Part shown: positions 12,805 to 26,556 of the stretch, piece after piece
Layout: the number at the start of each line of letters is the position of its first letter
Numbering within the stretch: the stretch's first letter is position 1
Virus genome (UHGV): UHGV-0062447
From: a virus
Strand: one strand, 5' to 3'
DNA: 26,556 nucleotides
Made by a program: the position numbers and the translations under genes
Notes under the pieces: generated by a model
The model's database searches: none
The model's input: only the letters and a program-made list of their open reading frames with translations
What the model was told of the DNA's origin: nothing

Positions 12805-14478
12805 TTAAGATTTATGGCTAAAGAGTATACCTGTAACAGAACGTTGATAGGCATCAAGCTTCTCTTGCCTCTGCTTAAATTTAGATTTGATATCACTAAT
12901 ACTCGGAATACCTATTACTCCAAGGCCTGCACTTAACGTCGCTAAAGTAGTATTGCCAGTCAGCGCTCCAGCAATTGCTATAGCACCATTTGCGATACAT
13001 GGTAGGACATCTAGTCCGTAAATTCTCAATTTCTCTTTTTGGGCTTTTGCAAGAATCCTTTGATGTTCAATAAAAGCCCGGTCTACATTATCAATTACTT
13101 TTTGCGTTGTCCTCGAAAAGCTCTCTGCCGAAGAATTGATTAAAGAGTCAACACCATTTGATAAGATGGATCTTACATCCTCCATCAATTTGTTACGTCT
13201 CAACTCAATTATTTTATTGACCGGTACATTTCCTAACCATGAAAAACCATCTTGCATACCAGCAGATAACGCATGAACCATATGCAAATTTTTTAGTTCA
13301 ATATCATTGACATCAAAATTAAGAGATTCGTACTCAATAAGCCAAGTATAATAGAGCCAAGATGTGTCTGCATTTATATATGGAGTACTACCAAGTTCTT
13401 GTGCATTACATTTTGCTGAATAGGCTTGCGGCATTCTTCCAATGCAGGAAAGGAAAACCTCCATTCCAGCATGATCACCAACAACATTACGTGATATTCT
13501 TTTTTTATCAGATAGTAGTTTTTCTAATTGAGTTTTTGGATTTAGCCCCCATGCTGTATCAAAAATAAGTCTATCTGCTCTCTTAATATTTTTAAGAACA
13601 GCATCAATATCATTCATCGAATAACTAAAATCTTGAAATTCATCGTAGCTTTCGAACCGTCGATCATAGAGATATTGCGCATGAGTCAGAGCATAAGGCT
13701 CACAAAAACTCATCAAATTTTTTTTGCTCTCAGTTTCAAAATCTCTTCTATCCGGCAAAATTAATACTATTGCTGGCTCTATATCTTCAAGCGCTACTTC
13801 TTTATATGTCATACATGTTAGGACATGCTTTAGAAGTATCCTTGTAAACTCAGCCTTATCTGACTTTTCATAGAGACGACCGACTCTTAATATAGGACAT
13901 GGAAGTGAAATAGTATCAACATACAACCCTGCAATAGAGACAGCATTCTCATCAAATGCAGGAAATAAGTCACCAGAAAAATTAGCTTTAAACTGAGAAC
14001 CATCCTGCAAATGTATTACACCAATATCGGATGTTACCTGCCAAAACTCTATTACCTGATTATATAACTCAGGAAAAACATCTTCTATTTGCTTAACATA
14101 TTCTTCTTGTTGAGAAAAAAAACTTGATGCTTTATGTGGCGTTGCATTAGTTTTTTTCATCAGATAAAACAACTCGCCAAAATTACTAAAAAGAATATTA
14201 AAGTAAGAACTTTGCAAGTCCTGAATAGAGTATTTGTTTTTTATATCTTCTCTTTCTAAAAAGTGATTAACCGCTGCTCCCATAGCCTTTATTCTGCCAT
14301 CAACAGTAGAAGGGTCAACTTTACCATCCTGTCGCAGCCTTATTCTTTTAAAACTTTCAATAAAACCTTCTACAAGATGATGAGCTATTTTTAGTTTTCC
14401 CGCTTCCAGTTGTTGCTTAATGAGAAAAACACGCTCAGTTAAATCGTCTACATATTCCTCATCTTGATATTTTTCCAT
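12805..14478 (-). CDS. Hypothetical 557-aa protein with C-terminal hydrophobic/glycine-rich hairpin; low-GC cargo gene between Q and cos
   Basis: Single long ORF, ATG 14476-14478 with GGAG 6 nt upstream; very AT-rich; C-terminal segment ...LPCIANGAIAIAGALTGNTTLATLSAGLGVIGIPSI... is hydrophobic; no Walker motif or other domain recognised by eye. Confidence 0.8.
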   Translation of the reverse strand: MEKYQDEEYVDDLTERVFLIKQQLEAGKLKIAHHLVEGFIESFKRIRLRQDGKVDPSTVDGRIKAMGAAVNHFLEREDIKNKYSIQDLQSSYFNILFSNFGELFYLMKKTNATPHKASSFFSQQEEYVKQIEDVFPELYNQVIEFWQVTSDIGVIHLQDGSQFKANFSGDLFPAFDENAVSIAGLYVDTISLPCPILRVGRLYEKSDKAEFTRILLKHVLTCMTYKEVALEDIEPAIVLILPDRRDFETESKKNLMSFCEPYALTHAQYLYDRRFESYDEFQDFSYSMNDIDAVLKNIKRADRLIFDTAWGLNPKTQLEKLLSDKKRISRNVVGDHAGMEVFLSCIGRMPQAYSAKCNAQELGSTPYINADTSWLYYTWLIEYESLNFDVNDIELKNLHMVHALSAGMQDGFSWLGNVPVNKIIELRRNKLMEDVRSILSNGVDSLINSSAESFSRTTQKVIDNVDRAFIEHQRILAKAQKEKLRIYGLDVLPCIANGAIAIAGALTGNTTLATLSAGLGVIGIPSISDIKSKFKQRQEKLDAYQRSVTGILFSHKS

Positions 14479-14579: not shown

Positions 14580-14598
14580 CTCGTATCCCCGCCACGCC
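14580..14598 (-). other. Putative cos site (cohesive-end sequence)
   Basis: Minus-strand sequence GGCGTGGCGGGGATACGAG; the first 13 nt match the P2/186 cohesive-end sequence as I recall it (GGCG[A/T]GGCGGGGAAAGCA[C/T]), followed by a CGCGCGC tract as in the P2 left end. Location between Q and A is as expected. Confidence 0.5.
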
Positions 14599-14640: not shown

Positions 14641-14667
14641 AGCAAAAGCCCGCCACTCCTGGCGGGC
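14641..14667 (-). terminator. Rho-independent terminator (GCCCGCC-ACTCCT-GGCGGGC stem-loop, T-run on minus strand)
   Basis: Read directly; lies about 95 bp 3-prime of the 203-aa minus-strand gene. Confidence 0.65.
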
Positions 14668-14758
14668 CTCAGCTAAAACGATCCTCAAACGATCATGCGG
14701 ATTCATGCGGCATAGACATGCACAATCTCCAAAGCGGGCATCGAGACTTTTTGGAAAC

Positions 14759-15370
14759 CTACGTAACCACAGTTAATGTGTGCATCCTGTCTCGAATTGC
14801 ATCACACGTCTCATCAAAAAGCTTGGTGATGGTTGTACAGTTCAACTCCGCCTCTTTCCAATAATTTTGCCCGTCAAATTCTGGATCGCTATGCTTAAAC
14901 GATATTGACTCTGAAAGGCATTCCTTCCGGAAACGGTCCAAGATTATATAAACCTCTGGTGAGATGAACGGTTTGTTAGATTCAACACTTGTAACAAAAG
15001 TGTTAAATGCATCAAAAAAAACTTTCAACCTTCTAAATTTTCTCTCTTCAAATGGTTCGTTGGGGTCAACATGATCCAGCGCAGGCCTCAGCTTAAGCAC
15101 GCTTTCTCTGGTTTCAAACATCGAATTCCAAATGAGACTATATGCTGATAACTCCTTATCAAAATACGCTTTCGTTACATAAACAGAATTGTCTAACTTA
15201 GCCTTTATTCTTTCATTAGTTGCACTCAGTTGTGATTGAAATTCAGCAATATCTTTGTTTAGCCGCGACTTATATCTTTCTAAATAAACTTTCCCGATCC
15301 AAACAAATATGCCAGATGCAACAAAAGACACCCCACCCAACGAAGCCAGAACTTTAAAGACTAAATCCAT
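14759..15370 (-). CDS. Hypothetical 203-aa membrane-anchored protein (N-terminal TM helix); low-GC cargo gene between cos and the SOS operon
   Basis: ATG 15368-15370 preceded by AGGTGGGGG; N-terminus MDLVFKVLASLGGVSFVASGIFVWIG is a predicted TM helix; AT-rich; nothing recognised in the remainder. Confidence 0.8.
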   Translation of the reverse strand: MDLVFKVLASLGGVSFVASGIFVWIGKVYLERYKSRLNKDIAEFQSQLSATNERIKAKLDNSVYVTKAYFDKELSAYSLIWNSMFETRESVLKLRPALDHVDPNEPFEERKFRRLKVFFDAFNTFVTSVESNKPFISPEVYIILDRFRKECLSESISFKHSDPEFDGQNYWKEAELNCTTITKLFDETCDAIRDRMHTLTVVT

Positions 15371-15399: not shown

Positions 15400-15427
15400 A
15401 TTATAAGCTAATACATTTTTAATCAAA
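15400..15427 (-). promoter_or_regulatory. Sigma70-like promoter for the 203-aa gene (-35 TTTGAT, 16-bp spacer, -10 TATAAT)
   Basis: Read on the minus strand: ...cctgTTTGATtaaaaatgtattagctTATAATgg...; about 25-30 nt upstream of the ATG. Confidence 0.5.
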
Positions 15428-15634
15428 CAGGGGATAATTCGCGTCAACCTCATCACTTCTCTGCTCTACCCTAGTGACTTCCATCAAAAACCCCAGGCCG
15501 TCATATAGCGAAACGGGGAATTCCAGCTCAAGCCAGAAGCAGTCTTCATAGATGCGGCCCAACCAAAAACCTCCGCCACACTCCTTTGGGCGTTGAAAGA
15601 AGACCCAGTCGCCAAGGGTTAAACGTTCCAGCAC
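15419..15634 (-). CDS. Hypothetical small protein (71 aa, GTG start); possible third cistron of the SOS operon
   Basis: ORF-track entry only; no ATG start and a weak RBS. Confidence 0.3.
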   Translation of the reverse strand: MLERLTLGDWVFFQRPKECGGGFWLGRIYEDCFWLELEFPVSLYDGLGFLMEVTRVEQRSDEVDANYPLFD

Positions 15635-15752
15635 CTAGCCCCGATAAATAATCTGGTGATTACTGTCTTTTTTACCCATGGCTAACGCCTCGCTACTCTC
15701 GTTGTTCAACCTTGCTGACGTCAGATTCAAGTTCTTACATCAGGAACGTTCC

Positions 15753-15986
15753 TTAGTGCAGCCAGCTGTCGTCTTCCCAAACCTGTTGCATAATTTCCAT
15801 CACCCGCTTTTTGTCTTCATCAAGCTTTAAGCCACTCAGCTCAACGCCGTTTGCCGCCCCTTTACGGATGCGGATAGCGGTCTTGGGATAGATGGGTTGC
15901 AGGTTGCGGTAAAGCTCGGACTCCAGAGCGTCCAGGGTAGACTGGCTAATCTTCTGCTCTTTATCGATCATTATTTCAATGCGCAT
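15753..15986 (-). CDS. DinI-family protein (77 aa), 186 Tum C-terminal-like
   Basis: From ATG 15984-15986: MRIEIMIDKEQKISQSTLDALESELYRNLQ...GAANGVELSG...EDKKRVMEIMQQVWEDDSWL parallels E. coli DinI (MRIEVTIAK...DALAGELSRRIQ...AAANNLSVIG...EDKQRISEILQETWE) as I recall it; SD GAGGTGA upstream. Confidence 0.8.
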   Translation of the reverse strand: MRIEIMIDKEQKISQSTLDALESELYRNLQPIYPKTAIRIRKGAANGVELSGLKLDEDKKRVMEIMQQVWEDDSWLH

Positions 15987-15996
15987 AAAAGTCACC

Positions 15997-16185
15997 TCAA
16001 CTGATGACATCCATTGAGCGGTTGTATTCGTGGGTTCTGATTTTTGCCATGAGTTCATCTGTTAGTTCAGAAACCCACTGCAAAGCCAGCCCCTTCTCTT
16101 CATCACTACACTCACTAGCCGCTACAAGCTTAAGAAAAAAATCAATGCGCTGGAGCTTCAAAGACTCCAAAAAATAGTCCTGCAT
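15997..16185 (-). CDS. Small protein (62 aa), first cistron of the LexA-controlled operon
   Basis: ATG 16183-16185 preceded by GGAGGAAAAATG; ends 10 nt before the dinI-like ATG. Confidence 0.6.
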   Translation of the reverse strand: MQDYFLESLKLQRIDFFLKLVAASECSDEEKGLALQWVSELTDELMAKIRTHEYNRSMDVIS

Positions 16186-16228
16186 TTTTCCTCCTATGAC
16201 ACCACAAGCAATACTGTATACATAACCA

Positions 16229-16244
16229 CTGTTTATATTTACAG
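16229..16244. promoter_or_regulatory. LexA box (SOS operator) CTGTTTATATTTACAG
   Basis: Perfect CTGT-N8-ACAG with AT-rich centre, read directly, inside the promoter region of the small-ORF/dinI-like operon. Equivalent to the LexA-repressed p95/tum promoter of phage 186, located between A and cos. Confidence 0.8.
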
Positions 16245-16338
16245 TATATAATAATCTTACTGATGTAAAACGTTTTTTTACGTTCATCAGCCTGATATGC
16301 CTGGTATTATTAAGAGCACGAATTGTTAATCAGCGTAA

Positions 16339-18753
16339 TTAATACATGTTCCGCCATTTATCATCCTCCTGCAGACGCTGGTTCCGATAGAAGATACGCA
16401 GGCCTGCTCCTGACGGAATACTGCCACCGCGAAGGAGCAACTCGACCTCTTTCTCGCTGCCATCAAATCCTCTGGACTTCAGTTCATAGACAAGCTGCTG
16501 TCGCTGATGGTCTGTAATTCGCTGTTTGTAGTCTTTACGCCGTTTCGGTTTCACCAGGCGTAACCTTGCTGCCAGTTCCCGGCGATCTTTTTTGCTCATA
16601 CTGTGCAGGTAATCGTGCAACTCCTTGTCATTCATACGGGTAATATCCGTTCTGGAGTCCCCATCAGCTGATTTGTTTTTCCCTTGTTGGTTCAAATTTT
16701 CAGCAAGGGGACAGTTATTGCCACGAGTCCAAGGGGCGCAAGCGCCCTGGTCGGCTGCCGCCTCCTGAACGTCAACGGCCTTACGAACCATTTTCCACTT
16801 CACCGCATGAGTGCAGATCTTGCCCTCTGCAATGGGTGACCAGATGCCATAAATACGAATACCGTGATCGCCATAGGCGGTTGGCTCTTCGTTGATTTCA
16901 TAAGCGGTTCTGATGAGGTGATATTTACGGGGAACCAGTACGCCGCCCTGCTTCATGATATAGGTGGCAAAACAACCAGCATCAGCAGCAGCCAGAATGG
17001 CATCAAGGCGCGGGTTATCCAGTACCGGCGCACCTGCTTTTTTGTCACCCTGTTGCCTTGCCGCCTGACCAGCCAGCAATCGCAGTTCACGGTAAGCCTG
17101 ACGCCCCGGAATGCCAAAGAAGCGGAATTGCTGAACACGATGCAGAGACGCCCAGGCATTAACGTATTCAGCGTTATCACGCAGGGATTTACCCGTTTCC
17201 TTGCTGATCTCCCCAGCCAGACCACGCCCGTCAATGTTCTTACTGATGTATTTCGCGATATAGCTTGTTGGCGTACCTTTGCGCGGGTTTATCAGCTCAG
17301 ACTTAAAGCGTGGTCCCGTGTTATTGCCCAGCTCCTCGCGGTCTTCACGGATGGCAAACTTACGCAGTAATGCAGTGATGGCGCGGCGGTCTTTTTTACG
17401 CATGAAACACATGAGATGCCAGTGCACAGTACCGTCATGATGCGGCTCAGCTACCCGCACGCCATACCAGCGCAACTCGGCTTTATGCATAGCCTTACGA
17501 AATGCAGCAAACATGCCGACCAGATAATCGCTACTTTGTCTTACCGTCGCGTTTGTCCAGGTCGGGTTTGGTCTGCCGTTATTGAGCGTGGAATGGAAAC
17601 GCGACGGACAGGTGATAGTGTAGAAAACGGCACAGTCACTGCGCATTTCCGCGATAAGCTCCAGACCTTTAACACAGGCCATCATCTCATTGCGGCGATG
17701 CGCCGGGTTGCTGCTGCTGGCGTTTACCACATCTTCCATATCCAGCGTGTCGCCGTCTTCGTTCACCAGTTCATGAGAACGAAAAAACTCCAGCGACTTA
17801 CGGCGCTGCTCACGTTTATGCATCACGGCTTCATAGCTGACATAGGGGGATGCTTTTTTGCTGACCAGGCAGACAGCACGCAACTGCTCTTCCCGCCATT
17901 CGCAACGCATCTTCCATAATTTCCGATACCACCAGTCGGCACACAACATACGCGCCAGCGAACCCGGGATGAGTTCATAGGGCACTGGTTTGCGGCGGTT
18001 TCTTTTCCGACGAAGTTTCTCAAACGCAGGCGGGATAACATCCAGACGCAGGGTTTCCGCTGCCACCTTTTCCCATGTCTTGCGGATTTCTTCTGGCTTA
18101 ACGTCATCGGTGGCATACAAGTCACCACAAGCGTCCTCAAGACACATGCTCATATGCGCTGCTACCAGGGTGGACAGGCGTTTCACCTGATCCTGGCTCA
18201 TTTCAGGCAGGATCAGCAGACCCTCCAGCCCTTGATGGCTTGCCATAAAACGGAAAGAAACAGATAGCTGACTGTCACGTACACAATCCAGTCGCTCCAG
18301 ACATGGCTTAATCGTCTCACGCAAATAGCGGGAATAAGCCTTTGGCCTGCCCAGGCTGCTGAAGTATTCAATACGTTGCATCAGCGGCTTGCTGATATGG
18401 GAAGGCTGGGCGTTTACGTCCGCCAGAATGACCATGTCCGGATTAAAACGCTGCTGCTCATGCGCCAGCTTTGCCCGGCTAATGAGCTTATCCTGCTCCA
18501 TTTCGCGCTGGACAGGATCACGGGATTCATTAAAGAAATAACGCTCCCAGACCTGCTCACTCAGTGCCTCGCGGCGCAGTTGTTCCTGCTCGTTATCGGC
18601 AGCGTACAGAGTGATCAGGTTTGAAAGTGCAGACTCCGGCGCAACTTCCGCCGGGTCCAGATAAGGGTTAATGGCCTTTTTCGAGCCGTTCCATGAAAAT
18701 GCTGCGGCGGCCTCGTTAAAGCCGCTGCAATTGTTCATATCGTCATGACTCAT
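16339..18753 (-). CDS. A: Replication initiation protein A (rolling-circle endonuclease), P2/186 gpA-like
   Basis: 804 aa from ATG 18751-18753 (overlaps dam stop as ATGA); large protein in the expected position, with translation recognised as P2/186 gene A family. Confidence 0.85.
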
Positions 18754-22475: not shown

Positions 22476-22564
22476 AAGGCAACATTCCTTCTAGATATGG
22501 CTTGTGGCGAGCCGTTGTTTGTCGTGATTAGTAGTGAAGGCTCCAAAAGAAGACTTCTGGTTCA

Positions 22565-22593
22565 ACTTTAAGATCGCTTTTGGAATCTGTCAA
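22565..22593 (-). promoter_or_regulatory. Lytic promoter (pR-like): -35 TTGACA, 17-bp spacer, -10 TAAAGT on the minus strand
   Basis: Read on the minus strand: TTGACAgattccaaaagcgatctTAAAGT. Directed toward apl and located inside the cI leader, the face-to-face arrangement described for 186 pR/pL. Confidence 0.55.
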
Positions 22594-22620
22594 CGAATTT
22601 TGGATTTCTTTGGAGGATTT

Positions 22621-23190
22621 GTGGATTTCAATAGCGGCGGTAAGAAAGCCATAGAACGTTTGGTTGAAGCATACGGGTTCGGTACCCGTCAGGCTCTCTG
22701 TGATCATTTAGGTGTTTCTAAGAGCACCATGGCAACGCGTTATATGCGTGATATTTTTCCGGCAGATTGGGTAATCCAGTGCGCCCTTGAAACGGGTACC
22801 TCGCTTAATTGGCTAACAACAGGGCATGGTTCAAAGCAAGCATCAGCAAATACAAATACTATAGAAGTAGTAAAATATTTATTGTCTGATGGAGCATTGC
22901 AGGAAGACGGTTTTTATATTTTTGATAAGGGATTTCTACCCTCTACGTTTAAAAAACCTTTTGTCATCACAGATAACAATTCTGAATTTATTTGTGATAA
23001 AGAATTTGATGATATACGTGATGGTAAATGGGTAATAAGTATTGATGGCGAAATAACAATCCGCGACATCACTCGTTTACCCGGTGGAAGAATTTTCGTT
23101 GAAGGTGGAAACAGAGCCTTCGAGTGCAAGATAGAAGATGTTGAAATAATTGGAAAAATTATAAGCTTAACAGTTAAGTATGTTAGATAA
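22621..23190 (+). CDS. cI: CI immunity repressor (186 CI family)
   Basis: Preferred GTG start at 22621 preceded by GGAGG (ORF-track start 22534 is also GTG). N-terminal HTH region (...AIERLVEAYGFGTRQALCDHLGVSKSTMATRYMR...ALETGTSLNWLTTGHG) and C-terminal pattern (WVISIDGEITIRDITRLPGG...GGNRAFECKIEDVEIIG) parallel 186 CI; C-terminal half is AT-rich. Confidence 0.8.
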   Translation: MDFNSGGKKAIERLVEAYGFGTRQALCDHLGVSKSTMATRYMRDIFPADWVIQCALETGTSLNWLTTGHGSKQASANTNTIEVVKYLLSDGALQEDGFYIFDKGFLPSTFKKPFVITDNNSEFICDKEFDDIRDGKWVISIDGEITIRDITRLPGGRIFVEGGNRAFECKIEDVEIIGKIISLTVKYVR

Positions 23191-23205: not shown

Positions 23206-23388
23206 ATGCTTGGTAAGTTTTTTTTTGTGGTTTTATCATGCTCTTTGTTATTAAACCCACTAACTACCTATGCTAAAAATTATCCTTGTTCTGGGAAAAA
23301 GGGAGGTGTCTCTCACTGTACCTCTGATGGAAAATTTGTTTGCAATGATGGAACCATCAGTAAATCCAAAAAAACATGCATCAAATAA
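23206..23388 (+). CDS. Small predicted secreted Cys-rich protein (60 aa: signal peptide plus ~37-aa mature peptide with 4 Cys)
   Basis: ATG 23206 with GGAGG 5 nt upstream; [60 protein letters not shown]; AT-rich; starts 15 bp after the cI stop. Confidence 0.65.
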
Positions 23389-23401: not shown

Positions 23402-24733
23402 ATGAGCACAGATATAACTTTCGATATACGTGATGAATATAAAAGAAAAGCCATTGCAGAAAAAATAATAAGTTTGCTAGAGTCTAATATTCCTGTTTCA
23501 CCTATGGTCATAGATGGGGACTGGGGGACTGGAAAAACAGAGTTTTCAAAAAAGTTAGCATCCTTAATTGAAATAAACTCGACCAATCATAAAGTAGTTT
23601 ATATAGATGCTTTTACTGAAGATCACAACGATGCTCCCATACTTACAATAATGGCCGCAATTGCAGCTCTATATAATAGCGATGAAAAAAAGGAATTAAT
23701 ATCTAAGGCATTGCCAGCCCTCAGATTCGGACTTAAGACTGTACTCAAAGCTGGTGCTGGTTGGGTATTAAAACAAAATGCGGATGAAATTAATGAGGAA
23801 TTTGAAGAGGTTATCAAAGACGCTGCAAATTCAGCTATCGATGGAACCATCGAGGCTCTGTTAGAAGATCATATCGAGGCACAAAAGAACGTTCTTGCTC
23901 TAAAAGAAGTACTAACCAAATTAGCTGGAGAAAGTAAACTAACAATAATTATAGATGAGTTAGACAGATGTAAGCCTAGTTTTGCCATTTCTATTATTGA
24001 AAATATAAAACATGTTTTTGATATAAAAAACATTAACTTTTTATTAATTGCAAACACAACTCAACTAAAAGCATCCATAAATCATATCTATGGCTCTTCT
24101 GTAGACTCCAACCGTTATCTTGACAAATTTATAAAATTTACATACAGCCTTCCTGTTACCTTTAAGGAAGATAATTATAATGACACTTTAACTTCCAAAA
24201 ATCATTGGATGATGCTATGTGAGCAATCTGAAAGGCTGACCGCTGCAGTAGAAGCCAGCGAAGATATTTTCTTACAGTTCATTGAAAGTAGAAAATTATC
24301 ATTACGTGAGGTTGAAACACTTGCTAGATATGTTGAAATATACCAACTACTATCAGGCGACAAAATTAGCAACAAATATATTTATGGATATTGTTATTAC
24401 AGGACTCTAGCGATAATAATCTACACTTTTAACCGAGAGTTAGCTCTCAACTTTCTTGAAGATAAAGTTGATGCTCAATCAATCATGAAATTGTTTGGTT
24501 TGTCTAAATTTTCATATCAAACAAGTGAATATAATGTAGATAATTATGAATATGCTATATTTGGAATAGTTTACAAATACTTATCTGAAAACTCATCTCT
24601 TTTACCTACTGAGGAAAATATAAAAAGACAATGGGCAGAAATGAGTGAATACCATTTTTTAAAAGGTAGTGGCGGTATTGGTGAACCAACAAATATTGTG
24701 AAAGATGCTTTAAAAGTTTTTTTACTTCAGTGA
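23402..24733 (+). CDS. KAP-family P-loop NTPase (443 aa)
   Basis: Walker A in the KAP-typical form GDWGTGKT and Walker B IIIDELDRC (DxLDRC); AT-rich; ATG 23402 preceded by AGGAA. Confidence 0.75.
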   Translation: MSTDITFDIRDEYKRKAIAEKIISLLESNIPVSPMVIDGDWGTGKTEFSKKLASLIEINSTNHKVVYIDAFTEDHNDAPILTIMAAIAALYNSDEKKELISKALPALRFGLKTVLKAGAGWVLKQNADEINEEFEEVIKDAANSAIDGTIEALLEDHIEAQKNVLALKEVLTKLAGESKLTIIIDELDRCKPSFAISIIENIKHVFDIKNINFLLIANTTQLKASINHIYGSSVDSNRYLDKFIKFTYSLPVTFKEDNYNDTLTSKNHWMMLCEQSERLTAAVEASEDIFLQFIESRKLSLREVETLARYVEIYQLLSGDKISNKYIYGYCYYRTLAIIIYTFNRELALNFLEDKVDAQSIMKLFGLSKFSYQTSEYNVDNYEYAIFGIVYKYLSENSSLLPTEENIKRQWAEMSEYHFLKGSGGIGEPTNIVKDALKVFLLQ

Positions 24734-24759: not shown

Positions 24760-24788
24760 TTGACACTGGTTATATATACAGTAAAAAT
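24760..24788 (+). promoter_or_regulatory. Putative sigma70 promoter upstream of int (-35 TTGACA) overlapped by a LexA-box-like dyad CTGGTTATATATACAG
   Basis: Read directly: TTGACA-CTGGTTATATATACAG-TAAAAAT; the dyad differs from CTGT-N8-ACAG at one position. Confidence 0.35.
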
Positions 24789-24812
24789 GCTCTCCACTGG
24801 AGGGCATTTTTT

Positions 24813-25865
24813 ATGGCTGTACGAAAACTCACCACAGGAAAATGGCTTTGCGAATGTTACCCCGCCGGACGTAGTGGGCGTCGTGTGCGTAAACAATTCG
24901 CCACCAAAGGCGAAGCACTGGCTTTTGAGCGTCACACGATGGAAGAAACCGAAGCAAAGCCCTGGCTGGGTGAATCAGTGGATCGTCGAACACTGAAAGA
25001 CGTGGTTGAGCTATGGTTCAAACTACATGGTAAATCTCTGACTGCTGGGCAGCATGTCTATGACAAATTGCTGCTGATGGTTGACGCTCTGGGCAATCCC
25101 CTTGCAACTGATCTAACCTCTAAAATGTTTGCCCACTATCGAGATAAACGCCTGACAGGTGAGATCTACTTCAGCGAGAAATGGAAGAAAGGAGCAAGCC
25201 CGGTCACCATTAACCTGGAGCAAAGCTATCTAAGTAGTGTTTTTAGCGAACTATCCCGCCTGGGCGAATGGTCGTATCCGAACCCACTGGAGAACATGCG
25301 AAAATTCACCATCGCAGAAAAAGAGATGGCATGGCTTACCCATGAGCAGATTGTTGAATTACTGGCTGATTGCAAACGTCAGGAGCCAATTCTGGCACTG
25401 GTAGTTAAGATATGCTTAAGCACAGGCGCACGCTGGCGAGAAGCCGTAAATCTTACCCGCTCACAGGTGACCAAATACCGAATTACCTTTGTAAGAACGA
25501 AGGGGAAGAAAAACAGAAGCATCCCTATCAGTAAAGAGCTTTACGAAGAGATCATGGCGCTTGATGGATTCAATTTCTTCACAGACTGCTATTTTCAATT
25601 TTTATCCGTGATGGAAAAAACGTCTATCGTGCTCCCTCGCGGTCAACTCACACACGTTCTGCGCCATACGTTTGCGGCGCACTTCATGATGTCGGGTGGA
25701 AACATTCTGGCCTTACAAAAAATTCTCGGACACCACGATATAAAAATGACTATGCGTTACGCACATCTGGCACCGGATCATCTGGAAACGGCGCTCCGTT
25801 TCAATCCTCTGGCAACGCTGCCAAGTGGCGACAAAGTGGCGGCAGCGGTTGGCATTACCCCGTAA
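24813..25865 (+). CDS. int: Tyrosine integrase (P2/186 Int family)
   Basis: From ATG 24813: MAVRKLTTGKWLCECYPAGRSGRRVRKQFATKGEALAFE... parallels the P2 Int N-terminus (MAIKKLDDGRYEVDIRPTGRNGKRIRRKFDKKSEAVAFE) and contains the catalytic-region motifs STGARW, HVLRHTFA and MRYAH. Confidence 0.9.
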   Translation: MAVRKLTTGKWLCECYPAGRSGRRVRKQFATKGEALAFERHTMEETEAKPWLGESVDRRTLKDVVELWFKLHGKSLTAGQHVYDKLLLMVDALGNPLATDLTSKMFAHYRDKRLTGEIYFSEKWKKGASPVTINLEQSYLSSVFSELSRLGEWSYPNPLENMRKFTIAEKEMAWLTHEQIVELLADCKRQEPILALVVKICLSTGARWREAVNLTRSQVTKYRITFVRTKGKKNRSIPISKELYEEIMALDGFNFFTDCYFQFLSVMEKTSIVLPRGQLTHVLRHTFAAHFMMSGGNILALQKILGHHDIKMTMRYAHLAPDHLETALRFNPLATLPSGDKVAAAVGITP

Positions 25866-25969: not shown

Positions 25970-26506
25970 CTACCCAGCAATCCTCTCAACCATCCTCAAA
26001 ATCTCCTCGCGTGATAGCGGCTTACGGTCGGTGACAAAATGCAGCGTCATCCCCTCAATAAACGCATCAAGCGCGCGGGCGGTTCCGGGTTCAAACCATT
26101 GTTCGAGCGTTTGTTGACTGCGCTGCATCCAGTTTTGCATTACCGTTTTTAAGAGCGGTTTTCGGCTAGCCAGCGCGTAGAGCTGGTACATCAGCTCCAT
26201 ATTATCCGGCGTTGCGACCTGTGAGCTGTAGATCATATCGGTGATAGCCTGGCATGCGCCTGGAGCATCACTAACATCGCTAAAAAATGCCTGATATTGC
26301 CGGGACATGATCTCAGTAAAACGGCTGAACGCCTCCAGCAACAACTCATCAATTCCTGAAAAATAGTAGGTCATCGATCCCAACGGCACCCCGGCAAGGG
26401 TAGCAATTTTGCGGTGTGTAACAGCATGTATTCCGTAAAGTTTCACCGCCTCCAGCGTGGCCTGGATAATTTTTTCTCGCCGTTGCGGATCGTTAGCGCG
26501 ACGCAT
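25970..26506 (-). CDS. TetR/AcrR-family transcriptional regulator, probably host chromosome flanking the prophage
   Basis: From ATG 26504-26506: [49 protein letters not shown] has a TetR-type N-terminal HTH; backbone GC; lies outside the phage gene order. It may correspond to an enterobacterial rcdA/ybjK-type gene, but I cannot confirm that. Confidence 0.7.
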
Positions 26507-26556
26507 GTCATTTCCTCTCTCTGCAATTGTGTACAAATGTACACAGTCTTGCTAAT

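Follow-up and report, generated by a model that had tools for sequence, protein, structure and literature searches.

A predicted SOS-induction operon with separate tumA and tumB cistrons and a colicin-type double operator in a P2/186-like Escherichia coli prophage

In phage 186 LexA represses the promoter p95, and after DNA damage the antirepressor Tum is made and sequesters the CI repressor (PMC7708051). The locus described here, in a viral sequence of 26,556 nucleotides (UHGV-0062447, hereafter the window), raises the question of what to make of the same arrangement when two short reading frames, of 62 and 77 codons, stand where 186 has one tum gene: is the split real, and which of the two cistrons would lift repression of the prophage? 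We consider it very probable that the locus is the SOS-induction operon of a P2/186-like E. coli prophage, in which a TumA antirepressor and a separate DinI-like protein, TumB, are placed under LexA. The split module is real but ordinary; it is already known, and the split is the common form in this lineage.

Read from its sequence, the window is a P2/186-like (Peduoviridae) E. coli prophage integrated beside rcdA, its integrase adjoining a host gene 97.8% identical to E. coli rcdA; among free phages Cartapus (Elveevirus) comes nearest, sharing 97.5% identity over the module. Gene A (806 aa, 18759-16339, minus strand), immediately upstream of the module, ends at 16339, and the end of the Cartapus genome falls at about 14631 in the window, which puts the module between A and cos, where the initial annotation had placed it. 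A cos consensus matched only with three mismatches, at 14581-14598, and the Cartapus genome end was used for cos instead. The genes of the lysis-lysogeny switch are the following:

22534..23190, plus strand: 186-type CI repressor, with 33% full-length identity to 186 CI (E = 5e-37)
22475-22272: Apl/Cox-like gene, beside CI
22216-21698: CII-like gene, beside CI

The true start of CI is probably the GTG at 22621, judging from its alignment with the CI of DuoHS, a prophage of E. coli HS, and this repressor is the presumed target of TumA. The phage thus combines a 186-type CI/Apl/CII switch with a tumA gene located 3' of gene A and ahead of cos. All elements of the module are carried on the minus strand, and each was confirmed by inspection of the sequence in the 26.5-kb window:

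16259..16291, minus strand: hairpin between the gene A stop and the tum promoter, its 3' arm containing the -35
16241..16269, minus strand: tum promoter, -35 TTTACA (16269-16264), 17-nt spacer, -10 TACTGT (16246-16241)
16229-16244, minus strand: SOS box 1, CTGTAAATATAAACAG, a perfect CTGT-N8-ACAG
16214..16229, minus strand: SOS box 2, GTGGTTATGTATACAG, degenerate (6/8 core positions), sharing one base with box 1
15997..16185, minus strand: tumA (orf62), 62 aa, ATG at 16185, Shine-Dalgarno (SD) AGGAGG at 16195-16190, stop TGA at 15999-15997
15985..16014, minus strand: small hairpin covering the tumA stop TGA (15999-15997) and the tumB SD GAGGTG
15753..15986, minus strand: tumB, 77 aa, DinI family, ATG at 15986 after GAGGTG, stop at 15755-15753

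A perfect LexA box over the promoter of a two-gene operon had been proposed for this locus, and that is what we found, since box 1 begins within the -10 TACTGT of the tum promoter. On the plus strand it reads CTGTTTATATTTACAG, the sole exact CTGT-N8-ACAG in the window, and as a 20-mer it agrees with TACTG(TA)5CAGTA at 17 of 20 positions. By motif count alone box 1 is not significant: a window should contain 0.38 exact matches by chance, and at least one turned up in 32 of 100 shuffles. What makes it credible is its location together with its conservation, rather than the count. Cartapus, Fels-2, DuoHS, PSP3, 186 and Yersinia phage 06.16-2 each have a perfect box in the corresponding place, and in the first three of these its sequence is identical to that of box 1. 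The promoter itself was positioned by analogy with the annotated p95 of 186 (TTCACA-18-TACTGT), whose -10 forms the left half of the LexA box; a generic sigma-70 scanner missed it, since the -10 agrees at only three of six positions. The promoter sequence is near-identical in Cartapus, Fels-2 and DuoHS, and the overlap of the TumA promoter by a LexA box is kept, at the sequence level, in all relatives examined.

The operator is made of two 16-bp SOS boxes that overlap by a single base pair, which is the arrangement of the colicin-type double operator. Both mismatches of box 2 fall in its CTGT half; its sequence is exactly that of box 2 in the colicin Y operator, and the layout, with box 2 overlapping box 1 by one base, is that of the pesticin promoter. 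About 140 small Col-type plasmids carry a match to the 42-nt operator, with identities of 85-92%, and those plasmid matches that were examined lie directly upstream of pesticin and colicin Y. The two settings differ in that colicin Y has CTGT-N8-CCAG as its first box where the prophage has the perfect CTGT-N8-ACAG, and in that the operator controls a bacteriocin there and a phage antirepressor here. In colicin operators the double box is bound by two LexA dimers and repression is very tight (PMC2994835); by inference from those operators LexA probably occupies box 2 as well, and the same analogy suggests that the double box gives an induction threshold above that of 186 p95. Cartapus, Fels-2 and DuoHS also have the double box, which 186, PSP3 and Yersinia phage 06.16-2 lack. 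Upstream of the operator, the hairpin at 16259..16291 folds at -12 kcal/mol (z = -3.8, with none of 200 shuffles equally stable) and may act as an insulator or a terminator for the early operon; terminator-like palindromes also precede the LexA boxes of the Gifsy SOS loci, according to Lemire et al. 2011 (PMC3121763).

The second cistron is readily classified. TumB matches the Pfam DinI family (PF06183) over the full domain, profile positions 1-63 of 63, with E = 6.9e-24 and 84.4 bits against a gathering cutoff of 24.2, and it aligns end to end with E. coli DinI (PDB 1GHH), the acidic C-terminal helix region included. Against the model of the chromosomal DinI equivalog (NCBIfam NF007893) it scores 54.2 bits where 111 is the cutoff, and on these profile scores it is a phage paralog, not an equivalog, of host dinI. 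TumB also aligns without gaps to residues 71-145 of 186 Tum, at 41% identity (E = 4e-25), and this alignment starts at the internal GTG of 186 tum, from which, in the 186 annotation, a 76-aa 'truncated Tum' arises that 'modulates SOS induction'; TumB is the counterpart of this product and of Tum residues 71-146. Two points of the initial annotation are settled by this: its statement that the C-terminal half of 186 Tum is DinI-like was right, and the DinI part does here form a separate 77-aa cistron with an SD of its own after a 62-aa frame. Its family membership and the 186 annotation make it most likely that TumB modulates the SOS response through host RecA filaments rather than serving as the antirepressor. 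TumB is 91% identical to its PSP3 counterpart, yet the TumA proteins of the same two phages are about 22% and the CI proteins about 35% identical. The protein that is conserved while TumA and CI differ therefore looks aimed at a conserved host target rather than at a CI-specific partner, while TumA appears to co-vary with the phage repressor.

The kinship of the first cistron is much more distant. A pairwise BLASTP comparison of orf62 with 186 Tum gave no match, identity to the N-terminal half of Tum being about 20%, and searching Pfam, NCBIfam and PDB with the orf62 sequence turned up nothing meaningful. At the level of PHROG profiles, orf62 matches phrog_698 (E = 3.6e-38), phrog_8554 (2.4e-8) and phrog_1993 (2e-3), and residues 1-70 of 186 Tum match the same three in the opposite order (phrog_1993, 1.5e-23; phrog_8554, 3.4e-12; phrog_698, 5.9e-6); these cross-matches are reciprocal and in a shared register, over positions 6-44. 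A 'tum protein' of a Yersinia phage bridges the profiles, with matches to phrogs 8554, 698, 1993 and 189, and PSP3 TumA matches phrog_1993. An alignment of five sequences has a common core with an invariant A-L pair followed by hydrophobic-x-x-[ED]-hydrophobic. Homology of orf62 to the N-terminal half of 186 Tum and to PSP3 TumA is thus found at profile level only, and this evidence places orf62 in the Tum N-terminal family as a diverged member. The proposal of a Tum-like bicistronic module is in this way supported for both cistrons, directly for tumB as the C-terminal half of Tum and through profiles for orf62 as the N-terminal half.

One could suppose instead that the operon is a host-directed modulator of the SOS response, with DinI as its payload, and that orf62 is a leader peptide without a role in the switch, the prophage being induced by some other route. 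Such a supposition draws on the absence of a Pfam or NCBIfam family or a solved structure for orf62, which the PGAP pipeline labels 'hypothetical protein'. It has to contend with the profile homology to the N-terminal half of Tum, with the conservation of orf62 at 98-100% across genera (61 of 62 residues are identical in Fels-2 STM2728 and in DuoHS ECHS_RS04495), and with the phenotype of a tum deletion in DuoHS: there, an in-frame deletion of ECHS_RS04495, or a lexA(Ind-) allele, abolishes both the lysis and the virions that mitomycin C otherwise induces (Phollow paper, 2025; PMC12055606). We regard a mere leader peptide as very improbable.

Whether the split itself could be spurious was a natural concern, and the nonsense codon in the neighbouring phrog_2100 gene, described below, does indicate some decay nearby. 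If a frameshift or nonsense mutation, or an error, had broken a once-fused tum, orf62 would be a non-functional N-terminal fragment. The two cistrons are separated by 10 nt and lie in different frames, their starts being offset by 199 nt (mod 3 = 1), and nothing resembling the fused 186-type Tum, one frame of about 146 aa, is found. No sequencing frameshift that would fuse the two frames was found either, and the same split with the same 199-nt offset is common to the window, Cartapus, Fels-2 and DuoHS. The reading frames, their spacing and the offset recur beyond these, the split module being present in 67 phage records and in 1126 of 5426 complete E. coli genomes. In addition, orf62 has a strong SD of its own, its family comprises 482 clusters at 90% identity across Enterobacterales with no Tum-length member among the top 120, and its DuoHS ortholog is functional. 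An artefact or a decayed gene is effectively refuted by this conservation across relatives, and we give it hardly any credence.

The preferred reading, an operon in which TumA is the antirepressor, would work as follows. In the lysogen, LexA would sit on an operator that spans the -10 and the transcription start of the tum promoter and that consists of one perfect box and, probably, of a weaker second one, as in colicin operators. DNA damage would activate RecA, LexA would cleave itself and the tum promoter would be switched on. TumA would then bind the 186-type CI and titrate it off its operators, and the loss of CI would free the early lytic promoter for expression of Apl and the replication genes. 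TumB would most likely engage host RecA filaments and so modulate the SOS signal, and transcription would probably run on through two more small genes to a terminator just before cos. Binding of Tum to CI, with the blocking of operator binding, is reported for the fused 186 Tum only, in the passages of PMC3121763 and PMC7708051 that cite Shearwin 1998, and by analogy with 186 Tum the split TumA may be expected to bind CI too. From the 98% identity of TumA to its DuoHS ortholog we infer that induction of the present prophage would likewise need both tumA and a cleavable LexA.

Which of the two polypeptides carries the antirepressor activity was left undecided at first, the function being either split between them or carried by one. 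The literature points to the upstream cistron, which favours the second option and disfavours the first. The GenBank record of PSP3 describes tumA as 'similar to 5' end 186 tum; UV induction of prophage' and tumB as 'similar to dinI and 3' end of 186 tum', and Lemire et al. 2011 (PMC3121763) state that tum is split in Fels-2 and PSP3 and that the antirepressor activity resides in the upstream gene of PSP3. The sources they give are Bunny et al. 2002 and a personal communication from G. E. Christie, so that the statement on PSP3 is second-hand. A Salmonella SOS-regulon paper leaves the Fels-2 locus unmentioned.

It could nevertheless be that TumA and TumB form a non-covalent pair that reconstitutes the fused Tum of 186, both partners being needed against CI. 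The two parts are a single polypeptide in 186, and the 10-nt gap together with the hairpin over the tumB SD suggests coupled, stoichiometric synthesis. This hairpin, at 15985..16014, folds at -9.4 kcal/mol (z = -2.1, 7 of 200 shuffles being equally stable), its stem is kept in DuoHS with one substitution in the loop, and it may couple translation of tumB to that of tumA. The DuoHS deletion, moreover, shows that TumA is necessary and says nothing of its sufficiency, and it could disturb translation of TumB if the cistrons are coupled. Against such a pair stand the report that the upstream gene of PSP3 alone is the antirepressor, the TumA-type genes of ENT90 and Yersinia phage 06.16-2, which have no DinI gene within 1.2 kb, and the conservation of TumB at 91% across TumA proteins of about 22% and CI proteins of about 35% identity, which argues for a host target. 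The 186 phage also makes its DinI part separately, from the internal GTG, and non-polar dinI deletions in Gifsy prophages left induction unaffected, according to Lemire et al. 2011 (PMC3121763). Taken together, these points make an obligate pair unlikely, and TumA acting as the antirepressor by itself is the reading we retain. The same small hairpin was the only candidate within the operon that the terminator scanner returned; it is weak, and we did not accept it as a terminator.

Downstream of tumB the following features complete the region up to cos:

15419..15679, minus strand: small phrog_2100 gene, homolog of Cartapus gp46, 3' of tumB
14759..15370, minus strand: 203-aa gene (phrog_26391) with an N-terminal hydrophobic segment, in the position of 186 orf97
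14641..14674, minus strand: intrinsic terminator, GGCCCGCC-AGGA-GUGGCGGGC followed by UUUUGCUU, just before the cos end

The phrog_2100 gene has an in-frame change of CAG to TAG at codon 15 (15637-15635), with a GTG directly after it, and is probably co-transcribed with tumA and tumB, no convincing terminator having been found between tumB and this gene by scanner or by folding. The terminator at 14641..14674 folds at -25.1 kcal/mol (z = -3.65) with a U-run after the stem, and is likely the end of the operon, comparable to t95b of 186. With no terminator after tumB and a strong one after the 203-aa gene, the operon therefore probably consists of four genes, resembling p95-tum-orf97-t95b of 186, and by positional analogy to orf97 the 203-aa gene is probably its final member. 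In the 186 annotation orf97 belongs to the p95 operon, and its expression from a plasmid prevents infection by 186; a PADLOC search returned no match for the 71-aa or the 203-aa downstream gene.

Among known systems, the nearest is DuoHS, which has tum (ECHS_RS04495) and a DinI-like gene (ECHS_RS04500) as two cistrons in a prophage at the same rcdA-adjacent site, behind a near-identical promoter with both SOS boxes; gene A is 96%, the integrase 98% and CI 86% identical. It differs by a single substitution in TumA (T51S), by a TumB that is only 84% identical, and by its cargo 3' of tumB and between cI and int. Fels-2 of Salmonella LT2 pairs STM2728 with the DinI-family gene STM2726.1 behind a matching promoter and double box and with the shared offset, while its host and downstream cargo differ and its CI is 39% identical overall (71% in the N-terminal and 24% in the C-terminal domain). 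PSP3 has the same order, a LexA box, a small antirepressor gene and then a separate DinI gene, 3' of A; its TumA, however, belongs to another subfamily (phrog_1993) and is about 22% identical to orf62, its tumA and tumB are in the same frame with only a stop codon between them, and it has a single SOS box. Phage 186 shares the position of tum between A and cos, the LexA box over a TACTGT -10, the downstream gene or genes with a terminator near cos, and a Tum composed of an N-terminal antirepressor part and a C-terminal DinI part; it differs in that Tum is fused, 146 aa in one frame, with an N-terminal half about 20% identical to orf62, and in that the SOS box is single. More remote are the dinI-gfoA/gftA loci of Gifsy-1/2/3, which, as described by Lemire et al. 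2011 (PMC3121763), are LexA-repressed operons of a small antirepressor and a DinI homolog that act without cleavage of the repressor; there dinI comes first, the reverse of the order seen here, and the phages are lambdoid, not P2-like.

The comparison of repressors bears on how TumA might reach its target. Phages whose TumA proteins are 98-100% identical have CI proteins that are only 39-56% identical overall, the N-terminal helix-turn-helix (HTH) domain being 71-88% and the C-terminal domain 24-43% identical, the latter in Cartapus, Fels-2 and 4LV2017-type phages; against 186 CI, the figures for the two domains are 40% and 28%, so that the C-terminal domain is no closer to theirs than to that of 186. 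The type of TumA tracks the N-terminal domain of CI, and this points to that domain as the target of TumA, although mosaic recombination could also produce a pattern in which TumA is constant and CI diverges. Some E. coli genomes hold up to three copies of the TumA module. We offer as a tentative proposal, more doubtful than the operon model itself, that an invariant TumA aimed at the N-terminal domain of CI acts in trans and cross-induces co-resident P2-like prophages with different CI proteins, while the double operator sets a higher threshold of damage.

As a discovery the module matters little, the annotation of tumA and tumB in PSP3 being about two decades old. Its value lies rather in annotation: about one fifth of complete E. 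coli genomes carry the 62-aa gene as a 'hypothetical protein', a label due to the lack of a Pfam or NCBIfam model for the TumA part, and this gene probably decides whether these prophages respond to DNA-damaging antibiotics. What we add are small points, namely the colicin-type second SOS box, the invariance of TumA against a diverging C-terminal domain of CI, and a LexA-like box before int, and we regard them as modest leads, open to testing, on the tightness and the reach of the trigger. The last of these is a conserved box (CTGG...ACAG) that lies inside a promoter just upstream of int.

We propose that int, the integrase gene of the window, may carry its own SOS-controlled promoter, an idea that comes from the sequence directly upstream of the gene. 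The features of that sequence, and the second box of the tum promoter, are:

24760-24815, plus strand: putative int promoter and leader region, with a LexA-like site, promoter-like elements and a hairpin
24764-24783, plus strand: third LexA-like site, CACTGGTTATATATACAGTA, matching the consensus at 17 of 20 positions
24813, plus strand: ATG, the real start of int, whose protein begins MAVRKL
16214-16229, minus strand: SOS box 2, a degenerate box overlapping the perfect box of the tum promoter by one base

Only three sites in the whole window score at least 15/20 against the LexA consensus, namely the int-side site and the two tum boxes. About 25 nt before the real start of int lies a promoter-like sequence, TTGACA-17-AAAAAT, whose 17-nt spacer is filled exactly by the int-side site. 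The CTGG and ACAG flanks of this site are invariant in five relatives, and its centre varies. Next comes a hairpin, with a folding energy of -13.1 kcal/mol (z = -4.1), that carries the int SD in its 3′ arm and has U6 after it. Its pairing is kept through compensatory changes across the five relatives, and the cargo upstream of the site and hairpin differs among them. In the mechanism we propose, the hairpin would act both as a terminator and as an SD trap, halting read-through out of cI and the cargo genes, and int transcripts would evade both because they would start within its 5′ arm.

At the tum promoter, SOS box 2 has exactly the sequence of box 2 in the colicin Y operator, and the overlapping layout matches that of the pesticin promoter. 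Among the tum promoters compared, those of the Fels-2/DuoHS/Cartapus lineage have this second box, and those of 186, PSP3 and Yersinia phage 06.16-2 lack it.

The remaining features concern cargo, the repressor and the attachment site:

23206-23388, plus strand: 60-aa ORF accompanying the P-loop protein gene
23402-24733, plus strand: 443-aa P-loop protein gene, inserted between cI and int
12805-14478, minus strand: 557-aa protein gene, between cos and the portal gene
14759-15370, minus strand: 203-aa protein gene (phrog_26391), with an N-terminal hydrophobic segment
15679-15419, minus strand: phrog_2100 gene, downstream of tumB
22621-23190, plus strand: CI
25970-26536, minus strand: listed ORF, annotated start 10 codons upstream of the real one

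The cI-int interval has the look of a slot for variable cargo or defence genes. In PADLOC the P-loop protein matches the candidate defence family PDC-S20 (E = 2.6e-171) and, more weakly, PifA and QatA; KP12 and 813R9 have a 'chromosome segregation ATPase' there, whereas DuoHS has a small hypothetical gene alone. From the ORF at 25970-26536, the window prophage therefore occupies the attachment site of DuoHS.

Among phages sharing the window's antirepressor TumA, the N-terminal HTH domain of CI is 71-88% identical and the C-terminal domain just 24-43%, reflecting either modular exchange or differing constraints; the pattern may point to the domain that TumA contacts.

Variable cargo also lies on both sides of cos. 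The 557-aa protein weakly matches DitB (5.9e-10, PADLOC), and a PADLOC search with the 203-aa protein gave no match; the gene for the latter corresponds in position to 186 orf97 and is probably inside the SOS operon. In the phrog_2100 gene, codon 15 (15635-15637, minus strand), CAG in Cartapus gp46, is a TAG nonsense codon directly followed by GTG, which leaves two readings of the gene: that it is a pseudogene, or that re-initiation yields the 71-aa product.
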